DNA of 64,000 bases, from the sequence record MK234886; one strand, 5' to 3'. Made by a program: the position numbers and the translations under genes. Below are positions 1,445-41,684 of the stretch, in pieces. The number at the start of each line of letters is the position of its first letter. Position 1 is the first letter of the stretch. The notes below the pieces were generated by a model. It was not told the DNA's origin and did no database searches. It worked only from the letters and a program-made list of their open reading frames with translations. The DNA comes from Escherichia phage AnYang.

Positions 1445-3123
1445 TCCATCACCGTGAATCGTCCAACTTTCTTCATCTGAAGATGTTGGCCATAAGCTTG
1501 TGGGTCATGGTCTCGGTGAGAGATAATGAACACGTTCGTATCCTCAAGGCTATTCAAGATGGTTGCAATGGTCTTAACGCCTTCAGCGTCAGTAGCACTG
1601 TCAAATACCTCATCAAGAATTAACGTGCTGATATTAACACCTGATACCTTAGAAGCAATATCACGCCATGTAAAAAGGAGTGCGATATCAATACGTGCTT
1701 TCTCACCCTGTGAAAATGAAGCATAACTAAAGTCTTCACGTCCACGTGATTTAATCGTCTCATTGAACTCTTCGTCTAGTGTAAAGACGTAGTCGGCTTC
1801 CATAATCTTCAAATAAGAATTTATCTGCTTATTAAAGATAGGAATGTATTTCTTAATAATGGAACCTTTAATACCGGTATCCTTCAACATTTCTGTCAGA
1901 ATTCCACGATGATATTTTTCCATTACCAAGGACGATTTGGTAGAGACGATTTTATCAAGCTCTGCTTGAAGCGTGGCAATCTCTTCGGCATTACTTACGA
2001 ACTCAGCAGCTGCTTGGTCAATTAATACTTTAACCTTTTTAGCTTTCTCTACAGCAGTAATGGCTTGTTGCTTATGAGTAGCTATCTGAGATTTAATGGC
2101 CAGCGCTTTATTACGTTGTTCGGTTACTTGGTCCTTAATGAGCTTGAGTTCTTGGTACTGCTCATTAATCTTATCCAAAGATTTTTGAAGCTCAAAGTTC
2201 TTATCCTTAATTTTAGTAAGGATGTTTCCATGCTCTTCCAGTCCTTGCATACATGTAGGACAACTACCACCGGTTTCGTATAATTTCACGACCTTAGTAA
2301 AGGTTGCCATATCATTCTTGATTGCAAATCCTTTATTGCTCAGGTCACTCATAGAGTCGCTAGGGTCATCATCGACTATGACATTGAGTAATTCATCAGT
2401 TAGTTTTTCTATATTGCCCTTCGCAGTCCTGGCTTCTTTAACGAGCTCGTCATACATTACTTGTAGACGTGCAGCGTTCTCACCAGATAATTTACGCTGG
2501 CGTTCTTCGTTGTCATTATAAATTTTAATCTGTTGGGTAATAGAATCCTGTTTAACGTCGATTACTTGGATTTGGCTATTAGTCTCACGAATCAAAGATT
2601 TGTTCAACTTGTCCATATCCGCTAATACAGAAACCTCTAACAGGTCTTCCACAAGCTTTCGGCGCGCAGGGGTCGACAAACCCATGAAAGGGGTATACCC
2701 TGCTGTACCAAGTACGACAATCTGTTTGAAACTGGCATATGACATTCCGATAAGCTGTTCAAATTCTGCTTGGAAGTCTTTACTGCTGGCAGATTCATCA
2801 AGACGTTCACCGCCACAAGAGATTTCAAAAATATTGGGTTTTTGCCCGCGTTTGATATAGTATTCTTTGCCATCATATTCCATCCACAGTTCGACCAAAA
2901 GGTCTTTCTTATTACTTGAGTTAATCAACTGCCCTTTCTTAACATCACGAAAAGGCTTACCGAACAGAGCAAATGTAACGGCTTCAAGGAACGTAGATTT
3001 CCCAGCGCCATTTTTACCCGTGACTAAGGTCTTTTGGACCTTATCAAGTTGGATTGTAATAGGTTGCTGGCCTACCGACATAATATTTTTATATGTTACT
3101 TTCTTTAACTTAAAAGTCTTCAT
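1441..3123 (-). CDS. 46: recombination endonuclease subunit gp46 (Rad50/SbcC-like ATPase)
   Basis: Walker A GKNGAGKST, Walker B LILDEVFD, coiled-coil middle; start set to MKTFKL as in T4 (560 aa). Confidence 0.93.
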   Translation of the reverse strand: MKTFKLKKVTYKNIMSVGQQPITIQLDKVQKTLVTGKNGAGKSTFLEAVTFALFGKPFRDVKKGQLINSSNKKDLLVELWMEYDGKEYYIKRGQKPNIFEISCGGERLDESASSKDFQAEFEQLIGMSYASFKQIVVLGTAGYTPFMGLSTPARRKLVEDLLEVSVLADMDKLNKSLIRETNSQIQVIDVKQDSITQQIKIYNDNEERQRKLSGENAARLQVMYDELVKEARTAKGNIEKLTDELLNVIVDDDPSDSMSDLSNKGFAIKNDMATFTKVVKLYETGGSCPTCMQGLEEHGNILTKIKDKNFELQKSLDKINEQYQELKLIKDQVTEQRNKALAIKSQIATHKQQAITAVEKAKKVKVLIDQAAAEFVSNAEEIATLQAELDKIVSTKSSLVMEKYHRGILTEMLKDTGIKGSIIKKYIPIFNKQINSYLKIMEADYVFTLDEEFNETIKSRGREDFSYASFSQGEKARIDIALLFTWRDIASKVSGVNISTLILDEVFDSATDAEGVKTIATILNSLEDTNVFIISHRDHDPQAYGQHLQMKKVGRFTVME

Positions 3124-3373
3124 CGTTATAAGCATCCTTGATGCATGATTCAGCCATATGAATTAATGTTTCTGGAGTATCATCTACCATTACATTAAAG
3201 CTAAATTCCACAGCCCAATCAGTAGCAACATAAACTTTAATAAGCTCGTTGGTATCACGAGTGCTCACGGCTTCAAACCAGAACTTAATGACACTCGTTT
3301 GGTTATCGTCATCAATAACGATACAGTCGTGTTCTAGTTCAAGGCCTGATTTTTTGAATTCATCTAAAGTCAT
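3110..3373 (-). CDS. hypothetical protein (gp46.1 position)
   Basis: 87 aa ORF wedged between 47 and 46 with ATGA overlap. Confidence 0.5.
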   Translation of the reverse strand: MTLDEFKKSGLELEHDCIVIDDDNQTSVIKFWFEAVSTRDTNELIKVYVATDWAVEFSFNVMVDDTPETLIHMAESCIKDAYNDEDF

Positions 3374-4392
3374 CGTGTAACCTCATTATAAAGTTGTGCA
3401 GCCATAGTCTTAAGGGCTTTAACATCGTCTTCAGTGTGGCCGTCAGGAAGGGCATCGATATAATCATACATCATATCCAAGAGGGACTTAACTTCATCTT
3501 CCTCTTCAGAATCATCGATATCAACACTGTTATCTACCTTAGACACAATACGTAAAGAATGGACAACCTTTTCAAGCTCTGATTCGAACTTAGTAAGGCC
3601 GTCATCAATTTTATCGACTATAACACGAACTGCGATATTTGTAAAATCTTTGTAATCGATAGTCGCGTTAGGATAATGAATCTTACGATGCCAACAGGTT
3701 TCATTGATGATGAAGTCCATCTTATGAGTTTCTGTATCGAAAATCCAGAAGCCGCGAGGGTCGTTCTCATCTCCAGCAGTCAGGGTCCATGGCGTACCAA
3801 TATATTTAACGTTTGCTGCATCAGAAATAGTGTGGAAGTGGCCTGACCAAACTTGCTTATACTTCTTAAGGAAATCAGGTTCTAAACCATGAGATTTCAT
3901 TCCTTTATAGAAATAAAAACCATTTAATTCCCAGTGGCCAATACAAAAGTCTGCTGTGGTATTTTTGATATGGTCCATGATATCAGTCGTGTTTTCTTCA
4001 CACATCCATGGAATCAAATCAATTTCGGTGCCATCAAAGTTAACAGTAGTAGGTTTCTCAATAACCTTGATATGGTCATATTTACCCAGAACTTCAGAAG
4101 CAGCGTTCGGAGTCAAGGTATTTTTGTAGTGCATATCATGGTTGCCAACAATGGTATACATGGTGATGCCGTTGGCTTTAAGCAAATCGGAGATTTCGCG
4201 AGCGAATTCCATGCACTTGTGGGTAATTGCTTTACGGACATCAAAGATATCGCCGTACTGAATCCATACAGTAATACCATTTGCTTTAGAATAATCAATA
4301 GCGTCTTGGATACCTTGACGTTGGATATTTTGTACCCATACATCATCGGCCTTAACTCCAAGGTGCCAATCACCTGTGTTTAATATTTTCAT
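3370..4392 (-). CDS. 47: recombination endonuclease subunit gp47 (Mre11/SbcD-like)
   Basis: 340 aa; phosphoesterase motifs GDWHLG, GDIFD, GNHD. Confidence 0.93.
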   Translation of the reverse strand: MKILNTGDWHLGVKADDVWVQNIQRQGIQDAIDYSKANGITVWIQYGDIFDVRKAITHKCMEFAREISDLLKANGITMYTIVGNHDMHYKNTLTPNAASEVLGKYDHIKVIEKPTTVNFDGTEIDLIPWMCEENTTDIMDHIKNTTADFCIGHWELNGFYFYKGMKSHGLEPDFLKKYKQVWSGHFHTISDAANVKYIGTPWTLTAGDENDPRGFWIFDTETHKMDFIINETCWHRKIHYPNATIDYKDFTNIAVRVIVDKIDDGLTKFESELEKVVHSLRIVSKVDNSVDIDDSEEEDEVKSLLDMMYDYIDALPDGHTEDDVKALKTMAAQLYNEVTR

Positions 4393-25806: not shown

Positions 25807-26106
25807 TTAGAAAGAACCAGAGCCTTTAATTGTGTTCTGGCGACCTTTATTTTCTAATTCAGAGTGGTCGATTTCATATGCTTGTGCTACGCCAAAGGCC
25901 TTTTTAACTTTAGCTAAAGAACCTTTAGATGTAACAATATTAAAAGTATTACCTTTGGTAAAATCAACCAAATCGACTTGTACACCCTGTTTACCAAGGC
26001 TTGCTACAATAGCGTCAACATATTCTTGGTCTAAATTACCTTGAACTCCAATTTGAAATGCTTTAGGAGCTTTGGCTTCTGTAATAAATTCTTGATAAGT
26101 TTTCAT
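25807..26106 (-). CDS. internal-protein-like protein with capsid targeting sequence (CTS)
   Basis: 99 aa; N-terminus MKTYQEFITE matches the T4 IP leader with Glu at position 10. Confidence 0.65.
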   Translation of the reverse strand: MKTYQEFITEAKAPKAFQIGVQGNLDQEYVDAIVASLGKQGVQVDLVDFTKGNTFNIVTSKGSLAKVKKAFGVAQAYEIDHSELENKGRQNTIKGSGSF

Positions 26107-26114
26107 ATTATTCC

Positions 26115-26474
26115 TTAAAGATGGTCAAGCGCCGGGTTATGAGGTTTTTCTGCTTTAGTAGTGTTTTTATGCCAATCTGATTTGGAAACACGAATTGCAT
26201 CAGCACCATAAGAACTCTTAAGGATACCTTTTTTATTGTACACGCTTATTGAAGTAAGAGAATCGCCATTCCAAGTAGCATGGACAAAGTTAGATTTAGA
26301 TTTAAGTTCTTTAGCCAAGCTCTGGTTAGATGCCATAGAAGCGAAATCTTTACCCGTAACTTTAAAAACTTCAGATGGGTTCAACCCTTCTTTAGCTTTA
26401 GCCAACTGTTCAGGCGACATAGCTTCATTAAGACGCTGAGTTGATTCTGTAATAAATTCTTGATAAGTTTTCAT
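26115..26474 (-). CDS. internal-protein-like protein with CTS
   Basis: 119 aa; N-terminus MKTYQEFITE. Confidence 0.65.
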   Translation of the reverse strand: MKTYQEFITESTQRLNEAMSPEQLAKAKEGLNPSEVFKVTGKDFASMASNQSLAKELKSKSNFVHATWNGDSLTSISVYNKKGILKSSYGADAIRVSKSDWHKNTTKAEKPHNPALDHL

Positions 26475-26516
26475 ATTATTCCTTAAGTTGATAGAAGTAT
26501 TCTATCACGGATTTAA

Positions 26517-26933
26517 TTAAGCGTAAATAGCCTTGCCATAATATTTGTACCAAGTAGGTCGCTGTGCAATTTTTTCGTCCAAACGGGCCTGAGATATAGC
26601 TATAGAAGCTTCGTGAGGAGTATAGTCACCACGGAATTCCTGAGGAATATCACTAATGTCCTGGACCGTAGTGTCCTTGATATTAAAACCACGTTTTAAA
26701 CATTCGGCTATAAGCTCGATTTGACGTTTACGTAAAAATTCAAGCTTATCATAAAAGAAAGTAACATGGCCTGTACCGAGGATAAAAGTAGAGCTAATTT
26801 TAAAATCACGAACACGTTTACCATTAGCAACATGCTTACGAACTGTGCCGAAAACACGTGGTAATTCGCGATATTCAGCCATTAAGTGCTGGTCGGCCAA
26901 TTCAGATACTAAGGTAAGGTTGATACGAGTCAT
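26517..26933 (-). CDS. denV: endonuclease V (pyrimidine dimer DNA glycosylase) DenV
   Basis: 138 aa; near-identical to T4 DenV as recalled. Confidence 0.95.
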
Positions 26934-26993
26934 TTTAGTGTTCTCCGTGTTTGTATGAGAACACTATATCACAGCTGTTGTAAAAGTAAACTG

Positions 26994-27296
26994 TTATTTA
27001 GCTTTAATTGCTTTAGCTGCTTCGGTAGCCGCTTGCTGAAGGTCATCCATAGACATACCGAACTTAGAAGCAAAGTTATCAATTTTCTTTTCGACAGAAT
27101 TCAAAGGCTTGGCCTGTTTACCTTCATTAGCGCCAGGGAGAGCGAGAATACGCTCTTTCTCAATATAAAGGCTTACAAGTTTCTTACGGTCTTTATCTGA
27201 CAAATCATGAAATGAATGGGCCTTTTTATTTACAGCGGCTTCTAATTTACCTGCGGTTACGCGGGCTTCAGTGATAAATTCTTGGTAGGTTTTCAT
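26994..27296 (-). CDS. ipII: internal protein II
   Basis: 100 aa; MKTYQEFITEARVTAGKLEAAVNKK...; matches T4 IPII as recalled; synteny. Confidence 0.8.
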   Translation of the reverse strand: MKTYQEFITEARVTAGKLEAAVNKKAHSFHDLSDKDRKKLVSLYIEKERILALPGANEGKQAKPLNSVEKKIDNFASKFGMSMDDLQQAATEAAKAIKAK

Positions 27297-27324
27297 ATGT
27301 TTCCTTTAAAGGTAAATCGCTTTA

Positions 27325-27921
27325 TTAATTACCACGGGCTGCATTAGCAACGGCGTAAGCGTACTGAATATTAGCATCTTTAAACGTACCTTTAGAGGTA
27401 TCTATCTCTGCCTTAAAGCCGCCTTTAGCCATAACATCGGCAAATTCTTTACGGAAGGCCATTGCATCAAGACCCTTCCATGTTGATTTGTGCTTGGCAA
27501 ATTCAAGACCGGCGAAGTTGACCGCCTTAGCCAATTTATTATCAATAGTCCATTTACCTGCTTTAGGTACAAATACCGGACCTTTCTGTTTAGAGAACAG
27601 TTTTAAATTCCAGCGACGAAGGTCACCATCAGCTTTAACAAAAGCTGCGTCCAAGTTACTAGCAACAACATCCTGAATATGGCCAAATTTAAGTCCATCA
27701 GTTTCAATATTTAGGTCGTTACGCCAGCGAAGTCCTTCCCAGGCGAAAGCTTTAAAGTCGGAAGCCTTTGTAGCTAAATACCGTTCAATAGGAGTTGTTT
27801 TAGCGTCAAAACCGTTTCCTGGGTTGTCAACGCCGTTTCCTCGGTAAGTCCACTCATCTTTATTAATGCCTTGGACCTTTCCTACAGAAGCTTCGGCGAT
27901 AAATTCTTTATACGTTTTCAT
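27325..27921 (-). CDS. ipIII: internal protein III-like
   Basis: 198 aa; CTS MKTYKEFIAE; position between ipII and e. Confidence 0.65.
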   Translation of the reverse strand: MKTYKEFIAEASVGKVQGINKDEWTYRGNGVDNPGNGFDAKTTPIERYLATKASDFKAFAWEGLRWRNDLNIETDGLKFGHIQDVVASNLDAAFVKADGDLRRWNLKLFSKQKGPVFVPKAGKWTIDNKLAKAVNFAGLEFAKHKSTWKGLDAMAFRKEFADVMAKGGFKAEIDTSKGTFKDANIQYAYAVANAARGN

Positions 27922-27974
27922 ACGGGTTCCTTAAAGGTAAATATTTTAATTGGTATGTTCAAGTAACTGTAGAT

Positions 27975-28003
27975 ATACTATCACAATTCTAGGAGATGTA
28001 AAC
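27975..28003 (-). promoter_or_regulatory. T4-type early promoter
   Basis: GTTTAC -35, TAGTAT -10, 17 nt spacer. Confidence 0.45.
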
Positions 28004-28402
28004 TTATTTGTAGGTTTTCATCCAATTCTTGAACAAAGCCGCGACGTCTTTCTCTTTAACGTTCAGTTTAACGTCCAACATTTTACCACCCGCTGCTCTC
28101 GTTTGGCGAATCTTAGCAGTACCGGTTTCGCCATTCCACTCAACATAATACTGTCCAGTGTTCATTGCAATACCGTCGCCGTAGTCTTCATTTTTAGAAG
28201 TGGTGAAGGCCAGCTTCATAGTCTTAGAGACGCGGGCCTGCATGCCTGTCTTCAGAGCGTTACGAACGCGAATAACCTGAGGAGTGGCCTGGGTCAGGTT
28301 CTCATTCAGGTCTTCAGTGAACTCTTCAGATTCAAACATCGCCAAAAGTTCTTTAGATGCAGGAATTACATTCTCTGCGATAAATTCATTATAAGTTTTC
28401 AT
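28004..28402 (-). CDS. internal-protein-like protein with CTS
   Basis: 132 aa; N-terminus [10 protein letters not shown]; overlaps start of e by 14 nt. Confidence 0.6.
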
Positions 28403-36694: not shown

Positions 36695-37303
36695 TTATTT
36701 ACGAGTCTTTTCGAACTGGGCTGCGTCACCTGCAAGGCGGCCGGCTTGGCGAAGTTTGTTATTGATTTCTTCGCGCATAGGCTGGGTATACTTAAGGCCT
36801 TCAACCGTCAGATAGAGACGATACAGGTCTGGGGTATCCAGGTTGTTAATGTGTTGACCATTACGAAGAGCGTTGAATTCACGAACAAGGTGTTTAGTTT
36901 CAGATTCGATTTCAGAAACTAAAGAAGCCAGTTGGTTATATTTTTTAACTATAGTGCTGGTGTCAAACTTGATTTTAGGTTTAGGAGCTTCTTTTACAGG
37001 TTCTGGTTTAGGCGTCGGTTTCGGTGTTGCAACTTTGGGCTGAGCCGCAGGTTTAGCAACAGGAGCTTTAGTAGGTTTAGTAGCGCCACCAGCTACGATA
37101 TCTTTAAAAGCTTTGGAAGCTTTGTAATATTCTTTCTGGTTACTGGTGTCGAGCCCATACATATCATAGACGTTTTTAAAGAATTCGGTGGTGGTTTTAG
37201 TCCCAGAAATTTTATCATAAGCTGCTTGCCACATATCTTTAGTCATGCGAACGCCGGCTTCACTCAGAATGCTTTCGTTCAAAAATTCATTGTAAGTTTT
37301 CAT
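36695..37303 (-). CDS. internal-protein-like protein with CTS and Pro/Ala/Lys-rich linker
   Basis: 202 aa; N-terminus MKTYNEFLNE; KPTKAPVAKPAAQPKVATPKPTPKPEPVKEAPKPK low-complexity segment. Confidence 0.6.
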   Translation of the reverse strand: MKTYNEFLNESILSEAGVRMTKDMWQAAYDKISGTKTTTEFFKNVYDMYGLDTSNQKEYYKASKAFKDIVAGGATKPTKAPVAKPAAQPKVATPKPTPKPEPVKEAPKPKIKFDTSTIVKKYNQLASLVSEIESETKHLVREFNALRNGQHINNLDTPDLYRLYLTVEGLKYTQPMREEINNKLRQAGRLAGDAAQFEKTRK

Positions 37304-37331: not shown

Positions 37332-37366
37332 TATTTATACAAAAAGCCCAACCTTTCGGAAGGGCT
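37332..37366 (-). promoter_or_regulatory. terminator plus late promoter (TATAAATA) module
   Basis: minus-strand hairpin AGCCC...GGGCT with U-run, then TATAAATA about 28 nt upstream of the CTS gene ATG. Confidence 0.5.
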
Positions 37367-38225: not shown

Positions 38226-38300
38226 TGGTATCCCGCCCTGGGATCGAACCAGGACCGCAAACTTAGAAGGATCGTATGCTATCCATTACACCAGCGGGAC
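38226..38300 (-). tRNA. tRNA-Arg (anticodon UCU)
   Basis: hand-folded cloverleaf: acceptor GTCCCGC/GCGGGAT, T-arm CCTGG-TTCGATC-CCAGG, anticodon loop CTTCTAA, encoded CCA. Confidence 0.8.
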
Positions 38301-38305
38301 GTAAT

Positions 38306-38971
38306 TCAAAATTTTATTTTACGGCCTTTATTCCAACCTTCAGGAATAATATCCGTTTTGTTAATACGTTTAGAAACTTTTTCTTCTAAAGAATGAATCC
38401 ACATTTTTCCATATCCGGAATTATTTTCACCTTGTTGGTGTTTATTTCTGGCGTGAGATTCTTTCATTTTATTTTTGGTTTCATCTGAATGGGTCTTACC
38501 CAAGAAAGATTTAGTATTTGAAAATTTCTCTCTATACTTAGGATTATCCCAAAGTTGTTTAAACCTTTCTGAACCCATTTTACGATATTTTTCTTTAAGG
38601 TCTGGGTCGTTCTCAAATCTGGTTTTAAAAGCGGCAACTCCTTTTAAGGAAGCTTCTTTCTTTTTATCTAAATATTCTTCAGTGTTTAAATGGTCCCAAC
38701 CACCTTCACCGCCTAATTTCAAATTATAAACATCGGGGCGCTTTAAAAACTCTTCAGTCACAATATTCTTTTCTGACTCAAACATAGAGATTTTATCGTC
38801 AAAGAACTCTAATATTTCTTTAGAGAAATTTTCTATACCGTATTTGGCCTGGGCCCTTTTCAAGAGTTTACCGGAACCAAAATATGCATCATTCAAATTT
38901 TCGGTTGAATGGGCTCCTATATAGATTTTATTATTAATTTTGTTTGTTATTTTATAAGTGTAATGGAACAT
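38306..38971 (-). CDS. segB: GIY-YIG homing endonuclease (SegB-like)
   Basis: 221 aa; N-terminal YKITNKINNKIYIG GIY-YIG motif; sits between the two tRNA genes. Confidence 0.8.
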   Translation of the reverse strand: MFHYTYKITNKINNKIYIGAHSTENLNDAYFGSGKLLKRAQAKYGIENFSKEILEFFDDKISMFESEKNIVTEEFLKRPDVYNLKLGGEGGWDHLNTEEYLDKKKEASLKGVAAFKTRFENDPDLKEKYRKMGSERFKQLWDNPKYREKFSNTKSFLGKTHSDETKNKMKESHARNKHQQGENNSGYGKMWIHSLEEKVSKRINKTDIIPEGWNKGRKIKF

Positions 38972-39012: not shown

Positions 39013-39083
39013 TGGCCCTGGGTGGAATCGAACCACCATCCAGCGATTATGAGTCGCTCGCTTGACCGTCCAGCTACAGGGCC
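39013..39083 (-). tRNA. tRNA with CAU anticodon (Ile-lysidine type or Met)
   Basis: hand-folded cloverleaf: acceptor GGCCCTG/CAGGGCC, anticodon stem AGCGA/TCGCT, loop CTCATAA, T-arm GGTGG-TTCGATT-CCACC; CCA not encoded. Confidence 0.7.
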
Positions 39084-39484: not shown

Positions 39485-39769
39485 TTAAAGCATATTAATG
39501 TAATCAAGTTTAATAGAAGCAATCTTCAAAGGATTTTTAAAGATGTCATATTCGACCAATCCATTTTCAGTTGCGGTATAAAAAGTAAAGTTAACAGAAT
39601 TATAACGATGGCTGTTAACTTTGAGTTTAACATCGCTTGAACTACGGCCAATATTAACCTGTTGAACATCAAGCACAGCATCTTTGCCATAATTGCGAAT
39701 CAACAACTCAGCTGCAACCTGGTCTGAATTATAGCCATTCTCTGGATTAGTAACCTTAACGTATAGCAT
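39485..39769 (-). CDS. hypothetical protein
   Basis: 94 aa ORF. Confidence 0.5.
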   Translation of the reverse strand: MLYVKVTNPENGYNSDQVAAELLIRNYGKDAVLDVQQVNIGRSSSDVKLKVNSHRYNSVNFTFYTATENGLVEYDIFKNPLKIASIKLDYINML

Positions 39770-40171
39770 TTAACCCTCGTCTACAATGGTGTGGGTGTTG
39801 GCATTAACAATTTGCCACCAGTCAAAACGATTAGACCCATAAAGAGGCTTATTCTCGTTTTCTTTAATAATATCACGCAGTTCATCTTCAGAGAATGCTT
39901 TAGCGATTAAATCAGTATATCCACCACGTGGATAATAGTTGTCACCCGCGAACAAAAGGAAATTTACCTTTCCAGAAGGAATATATGCTTCCTTAGGATA
40001 CTTGTTTCCTGCATGGTCTAACACTTCAATATAACGATAAGGGATATCAGTACTTTCAACCCATTGCCAAGCCGCAGCAGGAGAGTCAAAAGCATCTACA
40101 CCTAAACGGTTATCTTCATCTTTAGACGGATTATTTTCATAATCCGCATATACATAATATTCAACGTTCAT
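39770..40171 (-). CDS. hypothetical protein (133 aa)
   Basis: ORF coupled to upstream gene. Confidence 0.5.
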   Translation of the reverse strand: MNVEYYVYADYENNPSKDEDNRLGVDAFDSPAAAWQWVESTDIPYRYIEVLDHAGNKYPKEAYIPSGKVNFLLFAGDNYYPRGGYTDLIAKAFSEDELRDIIKENENKPLYGSNRFDWWQIVNANTHTIVDEG

Positions 40172-40356
40172 TATTCACCTTTAGAGATTTTATCCATAAC
40201 AAAAGAGATTGAACCAATTAAAAATGCCACTACTAAAGAGATTATATTCTCGGAAGTTGAAAGCATATCGAGCATGAATCCTGCAAACATACTAAAGCCA
40301 AAAGCAGTAACGGCGGCCAGTGCAGTAACATTTCTAATTAATTCGCAACGTTTCAT
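40171..40356 (-). CDS. small membrane protein
   Basis: ORF-track start is TTG; ATG at 40356 with GGAGAA SD chosen; two TM helices. Confidence 0.45.
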   Translation of the reverse strand: MKRCELIRNVTALAAVTAFGFSMFAGFMLDMLSTSENIISLVVAFLIGSISFVMDKISKGE

Positions 40357-40392
40357 TTTATTCTCCAATCACTCATTTGTTTTGATAGGGCT

Positions 40393-40422
40393 ATAGTATC
40401 ACCACTAGAGCCCGTTGTAAAC
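40393..40422 (-). promoter_or_regulatory. T4-type early promoter
   Basis: GTTTAC -35, TACTAT -10, GGGCTCTAG/CTATAGCCC imperfect inverted repeat. Confidence 0.5.
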
Positions 40423-40424
40423 AA

Positions 40425-40697
40425 TTATTTTAGATAAATTGCATACTTTTTATAACCAGCCGTTTCGTGACGCAGTCCTTTTTCATTAGCAAAACGTTCA
40501 ATATTGTTAATTTGATTCTGGTCAAGTTCTGAAGTATCAAAAACAAAAAAGTTTCGCTTATTGCCTAAAGTTACATGATTAGTCAAATCAATGTTATAGA
40601 GATGATTTATATTATCAATCATGGTCTTAACAGATTTGTTAATTTTTACTTCTTCATTAAGAACAGATTCAGCGATAAATTCTTGATAAGTTTTCAT
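40425..40697 (-). CDS. internal-protein-like protein with CTS
   Basis: 90 aa; N-terminus MKTYQEFIAE. Confidence 0.65.
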   Translation of the reverse strand: MKTYQEFIAESVLNEEVKINKSVKTMIDNINHLYNIDLTNHVTLGNKRNFFVFDTSELDQNQINNIERFANEKGLRHETAGYKKYAIYLK

Positions 40698-40698
40698 T

Positions 40699-40920
40699 TT
40701 ATTCTACGCCAGCGGCTTTCAAAAGTTTTTTAAGATTGGCGGTGCCTTGAGCAGAAAATGTGACCTTGCCGCCTTTTTCGCTGATGCTCCCAGTCAATTT
40801 AGCAAGTTTATCACTAGAGACTTTTTTAAAATCAGCCAATGTACCGTCAAAGGTTTTTGTAACAACCGGCAGTTGGTCATGTTTTTTAGCTTCTGTAATA
40901 AATTCTTGATAAGCTTTCAT
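40699..40920 (-). CDS. internal-protein-like protein with CTS (ipI position)
   Basis: 73 aa; N-terminus MKAYQEFITE; immediately upstream of 57B as ipI is in T4. Confidence 0.6.
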   Translation of the reverse strand: MKAYQEFITEAKKHDQLPVVTKTFDGTLADFKKVSSDKLAKLTGSISEKGGKVTFSAQGTANLKKLLKAAGVE

Positions 40921-40957
40921 TTTGATTTCCGTTTGGTTAGTTTGTTTTGATAGGTCT

Positions 40958-40986
40958 ATAGTATCACGCCTATAGACCTTGTAAAC
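40958..40986 (-). promoter_or_regulatory. T4-type early promoter with AGGTCTATAG/CTATAGACCT inverted repeat
   Basis: GTTTAC -35, 17 nt spacer, TACTAT -10. Confidence 0.5.
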
Positions 40987-40998
40987 ACCTTTTTTAAA

Positions 40999-41676
<678 letters not shown>

Positions 41677-41684
<8 letters not shown>

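Follow-up and report, generated by a model that had tools for sequence, protein, structure and literature searches.

The ip8-ip9 gene pair at the ipI locus of Escherichia phage AnYang

Two internal-protein genes in the place of ipI

The analysed DNA, a stretch of 64,000 nt from Escherichia phage AnYang (MK234886) hereafter called the window, is a Dhakavirus-type genome of a T-even phage like JS98, IME08 and VR5, and carries two adjacent minus-strand genes for internal head protein precursors, ip8 and ip9, where T4 has the single ipI gene (Table 1). A first-pass annotation had described two tagged open reading frames (ORFs) at this place, with the N-termini MKAYQEFITE and MKTYQEFIAE, and had assigned them to the slot of ipI; both the ORFs, of 73 and 90 aa, and the assignment are borne out. 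The gene order 57A-57B-[ip8-ip9]-trna.4-trna.3-trna.2 in the window corresponds exactly to 57A-57B-[ipI]-trna.4-trna.3-trna.2 in T4, and the genes on both sides of the pair are conserved between the two phages. Internal protein (IP) loci are found between 57B and trna.4 or beside gene e, and the ip8-ip9 pair lies in the former interval. The 1.4 kb surrounding the pair is 95-98% identical to the corresponding DNA of IME08, UGJNEcP3, QL01 and their relatives.

Table 1. Coordinates of the ip8-ip9 locus and of the other features discussed (positions in the window, unless a retrieved locus is named)
Feature	Position	Strand	Remarks
57A	41454-41684	minus	
57B	40999-41454	minus	Acb1 anti-CBASS phosphodiesterase family, PF23474 (8.4e-59); conserved left flank; 85% identical to T4 57B
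Upstream cassette	40941-41004	minus	-35 GTTTACA from 40986, -10 TACTAT ending 40958; 10-bp hairpin 40952-40979; precedes ip8
ip8	40699-40920	minus	internal head protein precursor, 73 aa; tag codons 1-10 at 40891-40920 (MKAYQEFITE)
ip8/ip9 junction	40695-40701	minus	TAAAATG: ip8 stop, 1 base, ip9 start
ip9	40425-40697	minus	internal head protein precursor, 90 aa; tag codons 1-10 at 40668-40697 (MKTYQEFIAE)
Downstream cassette	40376-40440	minus	promoter 40393-40422, hairpin 40388-40413; after ip9, before trna.4
trna.4-like gene	40171-40356	minus	small membrane protein; conserved right flank; 67% identical to T4 trna.4; phrog_1692
trna.3	39770-40171	minus	
trna.2	39485-39769	minus	
Tag-bearing ORF	36695-37303	minus	202 aa; late-promoter consensus TATAAATA at 37332-37339
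Tag-bearing ORF	28004-28402	minus	
IPIII orthologue	27325-27921	minus	tag
IPII orthologue	26994-27296	minus	tag
Tag-bearing ORF	26115-26474	minus	
Ip7-like protein	25807-26106	minus	tag; 50% identical to RB15 Ip7
Tag-less relatives of the Ip9 cargo (retrieved loci)	L005 2507-2725; L006 2432-2716; L007 776-2758		

The identity of the two proteins is clear from their closest named relatives in phage RB15. Ip8 of the window is 82% identical to RB15 Ip8 over 74 aa (1e-43) and Ip9 is 78% identical to RB15 Ip9 over 90 aa (2e-54), with the tag, the length and the 57B-trna.4 locus common to both phages, and ip8 and ip9 are also the names given to the two genes in sister Dhakaviruses such as VR5. In the PHROGs collection Ip8 matches phrog_8765, annotated as 'internal virion protein' (1.8e-24), and Ip9 matches phrog_7673, an internal virion/head protein family (3.5e-56), while Pfam, NCBIfam and PADLOC hold no family for either protein beyond a sub-threshold match between DUF7412 and the tag region of Ip8. 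In the collection searched, Ip8 is present in 106 phage records, all of them T4-like (Dhakavirus, Tequatrovirus, Jiaodavirus and Moonvirus), and Ip9 in 198. The pairwise dN/dS ratios, of 0.13-0.29 for ip8 and 0.02-0.19 for ip9, indicate functional genes under purifying selection, and this together with the conservation across phage records rules out chance ORFs. By their sequences, the two ORFs thus encode the Ip8 and Ip9 orthologues of this phage, both belonging to the polymorphic set of internal proteins that T-even phages carry, and are situated at the ipI hyperplastic locus.

Promoter cassettes and the ip8/ip9 junction

The pair is bordered by two cassettes of about 65 nt which form direct repeats with a spacing of 565 nt and share segments of 38 nt at 87% and 26 nt at 77% identity. 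In each cassette, an early promoter of the T4 type (GTTTACA, 16-17 nt, TACTAT) is joined by a hairpin overlapping its -10 region; the hairpins have folding energies of -17.9 and -16.3 kcal/mol and z-scores against shuffled sequences of -5.05 for the upstream and -3.12 for the downstream copy. The pattern GTTTAC-N15-20-TAYTAT has eight matches in the window (14922-40986), compared with a chance expectation of 0.25, and each match is on the minus strand; the features of the cassettes are accordingly far beyond what chance would produce. The cassettes align with those on either side of T4 ipI and with the copies in WG01 and VR5, and the late-promoter consensus TATAAATA does not occur within 3.4 kb upstream of ip8. 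An early promoter with a stable hairpin is repeated at the borders of the module: the upstream cassette drives ip8-ip9, and the downstream cassette marks the right-hand border of the pair.

Composite elements of this kind have been described as PeSL cassettes, likewise combining an early promoter with a stem-loop and repeated at module borders (Arbiol et al. 2010, PMC2839356; PMC4122927), and both the PeSL and the window cassettes offer short homology for exchange. The cassettes of the window are of the T4-early-promoter type (GTTTAC...TACTAT) and have AT-richer stems, whereas the PeSLs of RB49 and phi1 have sigma-70-consensus promoters and are of the GGGG/CCCC type, a difference between T-even and RB49/phi1 cassettes which is stated in the PeSL paper itself (Arbiol et al. 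2010, PMC2839356).

No cassette is found between ip8 and ip9. The sequence across the boundary, GTAGAATAAAATGAAAAC, consists of the stop codon TAA, a single base (A) and the ATG of ip9, and, with only this one base between the end of ip8 and its own start, ip9 lacks a separate cassette; a promoter, a hairpin and a good Shine-Dalgarno sequence are all missing in front of ip9. With one cassette before ip8 and such a junction, the two genes are co-transcribed, and the translation of ip9 is probably coupled to that of ip8. The first-pass annotation had placed an early promoter and stem-loop before each gene, of which the existence of two cassettes, one of them preceding ip8, holds, but the second lies downstream of ip9 and not before it. 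An origin of the pair from two single-gene cassettes acquired independently, with a separate early promoter and stem-loop for each, would be in keeping with RB15 and RB32, where each ip gene is provided with a cassette; with the one-base gap and the position of the second cassette, this version is refuted for the window by the sequence and is highly improbable as a description of the present pair, although it holds as an ancestral state.

A route from such a state to the window is suggested by an alignment of the junction with CM8, Mineola, RB32 and Merlin, with which the RB15 sequence agrees. In CM8 and Mineola, a 61-nt cassette stands between the ...GAATAAA end of ip8 and the ...GAGGAGAATAAAATG of the next gene, and the same ...GAGGAGAATAAAATG precedes ip9 in RB32 and RB15. 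Deletion from one GAATAAA repeat to the other would yield exactly the junction seen in the window, which suggests that a cassette between ip8 and ip9 was lost in this way and that the junction is its scar. The pair would have been acquired through cassette-mediated module exchange, and the later removal of the separating cassette would have turned it into a single unit. In 27 records, 80% or more of a 141-nt probe spanning the junction finds a match, and in other phages one half of it only. Compared to RB15, which has the order ip5-ip9-ip7-ip8 with cassettes between its ip genes, the two genes in the window are in inverted order and form one transcription and translation unit without a cassette in between.

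The content and order of the locus differ widely among related phages, and the modular acquisition proposed in the first-pass annotation is well supported by them, as has already been published. Besides RB15, the arrangements include ip5-ip9-ip7 in RB32, annotated as "flanked by 43 bp direct repeat", ip8 alone in Mineola, orf-ip8 in Merlin and orf147-ip8-ip9-ip7 in WG01, while the Shigella phage CM8 (positions 1-1725 of the retrieved locus L011) has ip5-ipI-57B'-ip5-ipI-ip8, a tandem duplication with a truncated 57B. The number of known IP variants exceeds 30 (Arbiol et al. 2010, PMC2839356), and the genes and the shuffling of the locus have been known since 1994.

Some Dhakaviruses have an additional ORF of about 210 nt between 57B and ip8, as seen in WG01 (ORF147; L003 3770-3979) and in IME08 (L002 ~3105-3610), where about 210 extra bases precede ip8 and ip8 itself is left unannotated; the window is without this ORF. 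In Escherichia phage OLB35, a 77-aa 'ip7 protein' (P0058) appears to consist of an Ip7-like N-terminal part and the last ~35 residues of Ip9, and this chimera-like protein suggests that recombination also takes place within ip genes and not at the cassettes alone.

Targeting tag, cargo domains and tag-less relatives

Peptides of the MKTYQEFIAE type serve as capsid targeting sequences, and the internal proteins are diverse defence proteins of which the tag is the only common part (PMC3012670). The first ten residues of Ip9 are identical to those of T4 IPII and IPIII, as translated from the T4 record, in all ten positions, and those of Ip8 in eight, so that a tag of this type is present on both proteins, as had been noted before. 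Residues 8-10 read I-T-E in Ip8 and I-A-E in Ip9 and thus form a Leu/Ile-x-Glu site in the sequence of either protein; gp21, the prohead protease of T4, cuts after such a site. The predicted mature proteins are 63 aa (pI 9.85, 12 Lys/Arg) for Ip8 and 80 aa (pI 8.0) for Ip9. Literature searches for published virion proteomics of Dhakaviruses gave nothing relevant.

The T4 proteins IPII and IPIII, which inhibit GmrSD variants (PMC12373910), have the same ten-residue tag as Ip9, but their cargo is unrelated to that of Ip8 and Ip9 and they are encoded at another locus. The window carries its own orthologues of both, and altogether eight ORFs in it start with a tag, six besides ip8 and ip9, in the intervals 25807-28402 and 36695-37303 of the minus strand. 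The Ip7-like gene among them is at a different IP locus from that of Ip7 in RB15, RB32 and WG01.

T4 IPI and its mature form IPI*, an inhibitor of GmrSD (PDB 2JUB), have the same genomic slot and the same flanking promoter/hairpin cassettes as ip8-ip9, a size similar to that of Ip8 and Ip9 and an N-terminal targeting peptide that is cut off at a Glu. The earlier observation that neither cargo obviously resembles T4 IPI nevertheless stands, since pairwise BLASTP gave no alignment of T4 IPI with Ip8 and one limited to residues 1-31, the tag region, with Ip9. Membership in the T4 IPI family through homology of the mature part was consequently rejected, and membership of Ip8 and Ip9 in the IPI* fold was tested and likewise rejected. 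The two cargoes do not appear homologous to each other either, as hhalign aligns only the first ~40 columns, comprising the tag region, and BLASTP only residues 1-19. The AlphaFold2 model of Ip9 is confident (pLDDT 85.9), with an alpha-beta-beta-alpha-beta-beta cargo, and that of Ip8 is moderate (pLDDT 76.7) and shows a small alpha/beta domain; the sequence profiles of the two proteins matched no solved structure with E < 0.2.

The strongly basic mature Ip8 would be in line with a mainly structural role, in which both proteins, being basic, would fill the head or neutralise the charge of the DNA and have no specific host target, and internal-protein lysines are known to touch DNA phosphates in T4 heads (PMC3012670). 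Mature Ip9, however, is near neutral and folds as a well-predicted, compact domain, one conserved among phages that leave it unpackaged, and the purifying selection over the whole sequence, together with the presence/absence polymorphism among close relatives, suits accessory effectors better; a mainly structural role is accordingly unlikely.

The cargo of Ip9 (residues ~17-90) has relatives without a tag in several other groups of phages. In 44-kb siphophages, a 72-aa protein encoded in the early region is ~51% identical to the Ip9 cargo, and its ORF begins at its own Met with no extension upstream, while Seuratvirus ECP2304 has an unannotated ORF for the cargo. In Ackermannviridae such as SKML-39, an Ip9-like domain (phrog_7673 match 1.7e-08) is found inside proteins of 660-861 aa, in the 660-aa protein of Agtrevirus at the C-terminus. 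The N-terminal part of the large Ackermannviridae protein is conserved and is annotated as 'unknown structural protein' in Dickeya phage LIMEstone1, and the N-terminus MATPSFLNFLEE of the Agtrevirus protein looks like a targeting peptide. No Pfam domains were recognised beside the Ip9-like domain in the longer proteins. Searching 1.84 billion representative proteins with a profile gave 39 clusters, some of them with a tag of their own (MKSFKEYLTE...) and most without.

From this distribution, the T-even Ip9 would seem to be a small effector domain of wide occurrence which gained a tag. Its target may not depend on the DNA chemistry of T-even phages, a point relevant to function since the DNA of Dhakaviruses is predicted to contain arabinosylated 5-hydroxycytosine and not glucosyl-hmC (PMC13326640). 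Tentatively, and with some doubt, the Ip9 cargo could be regarded as a portable effector domain of ~70 residues in enterobacterial phages, deployed in a tagged and injected form in T-even and more distant T4-like phages, as a free early protein in the siphophages and Seuratvirus, and fused within a large virion protein in Ackermannviridae. The target of Ip9 would in that case be a widespread defence or host factor not tied to T-even DNA chemistry, and the T-even Ip9 would provide a documented case of an early gene turned into an injected one by the acquisition of a ten-residue tag.

Ip9, and possibly Ip8, could on the same grounds be an anti-defence or host-takeover effector directed not at a modification-dependent nuclease but at a target common to many enterobacterial hosts, with the T-even lineage merely having put a packaging tag on a domain that other phages express as an early gene. 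The tag-less homologues in siphophages and Seuratvirus, the domain within the large Ackermannviridae proteins and the mixture of tagged and untagged clusters in the profile search all speak for this, as does the presence of Ip8 in four genera that may differ in their DNA chemistry. However, Seuratviruses and Ackermannviridae also modify their DNA, so a modification-sensing target would remain compatible with the same distribution. Since, furthermore, GmrSD enzymes are what is hit by each of the three T4 internal proteins for which a target is known (PMC12373910), an effector of this other kind appears a credible possibility that falls short of being probable.

Proposed function and neighbouring genes

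Overall, it is probable that the two genes are orthologues of Ip8 and Ip9 whose products are packaged, injected and act against host defences, and that they arrived by module exchange and were subsequently fused. Following the T4 paradigm, the ten-residue tag would bring each precursor of the coupled pair into the scaffolding core of the prohead, where gp21 would cleave after Glu10 and leave the mature proteins among the packaged DNA. Ip8 and Ip9 would then be ejected together with the DNA and be active before the expression of any phage gene. To our knowledge, no phage counter-defences other than internal proteins are present in the cell before phage genes begin to be transcribed.

By analogy with T4, Ip8 and Ip9 are probably injected to disarm host defences, each neutralising one of them, most likely a modification-dependent (type IV) nuclease of the GmrSD family, although a GmrSD-type target as such can only be put forward as possible. 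In work of 2025, the T4 proteins Ip1, Ip2 and Ip3 were each found to block one distinct GmrSD type IV nuclease without cross-protection, all three being specific inhibitors (PMC12373910). Literature searches on the function or target of Ip8 and Ip9 gave nothing relevant. With their presence in 106 and 198 phage genomes, respectively, the two proteins are obvious next candidates for assays of GmrSD-type inhibitors, and whether ip8 and ip9 are present or absent may be of use in predicting which hosts a therapeutic T4-like phage can infect.

The genes, the tag, the polymorphism of the locus and the flanking cassettes are already in the literature and in GenBank annotation, and the first-pass interpretation, largely right, restates known biology. 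The additions made here are small: the fusion of ip8 and ip9 into a bicistronic unit, together with the proposed scar of the deletion, and the relatives of the Ip9 cargo that lack a tag.

Directly upstream of the pair lies 57B, and because this neighbour belongs to the Acb1 anti-CBASS family, the ip8-ip9 locus can be seen as a small counter-defence cluster. On the other side, the true start of trna.4 is likely the ATG of MKRCELI, the same as in T4. Further along the minus strand, the interval between the genes for tRNA-Arg (38226-38300) and tRNA-Met (39013-39083), which in VR5 and IME08 is without a SegB-like gene, is occupied in the window by a GIY-YIG homing endonuclease (38306-38971) that is 76% identical to T4 SegB.
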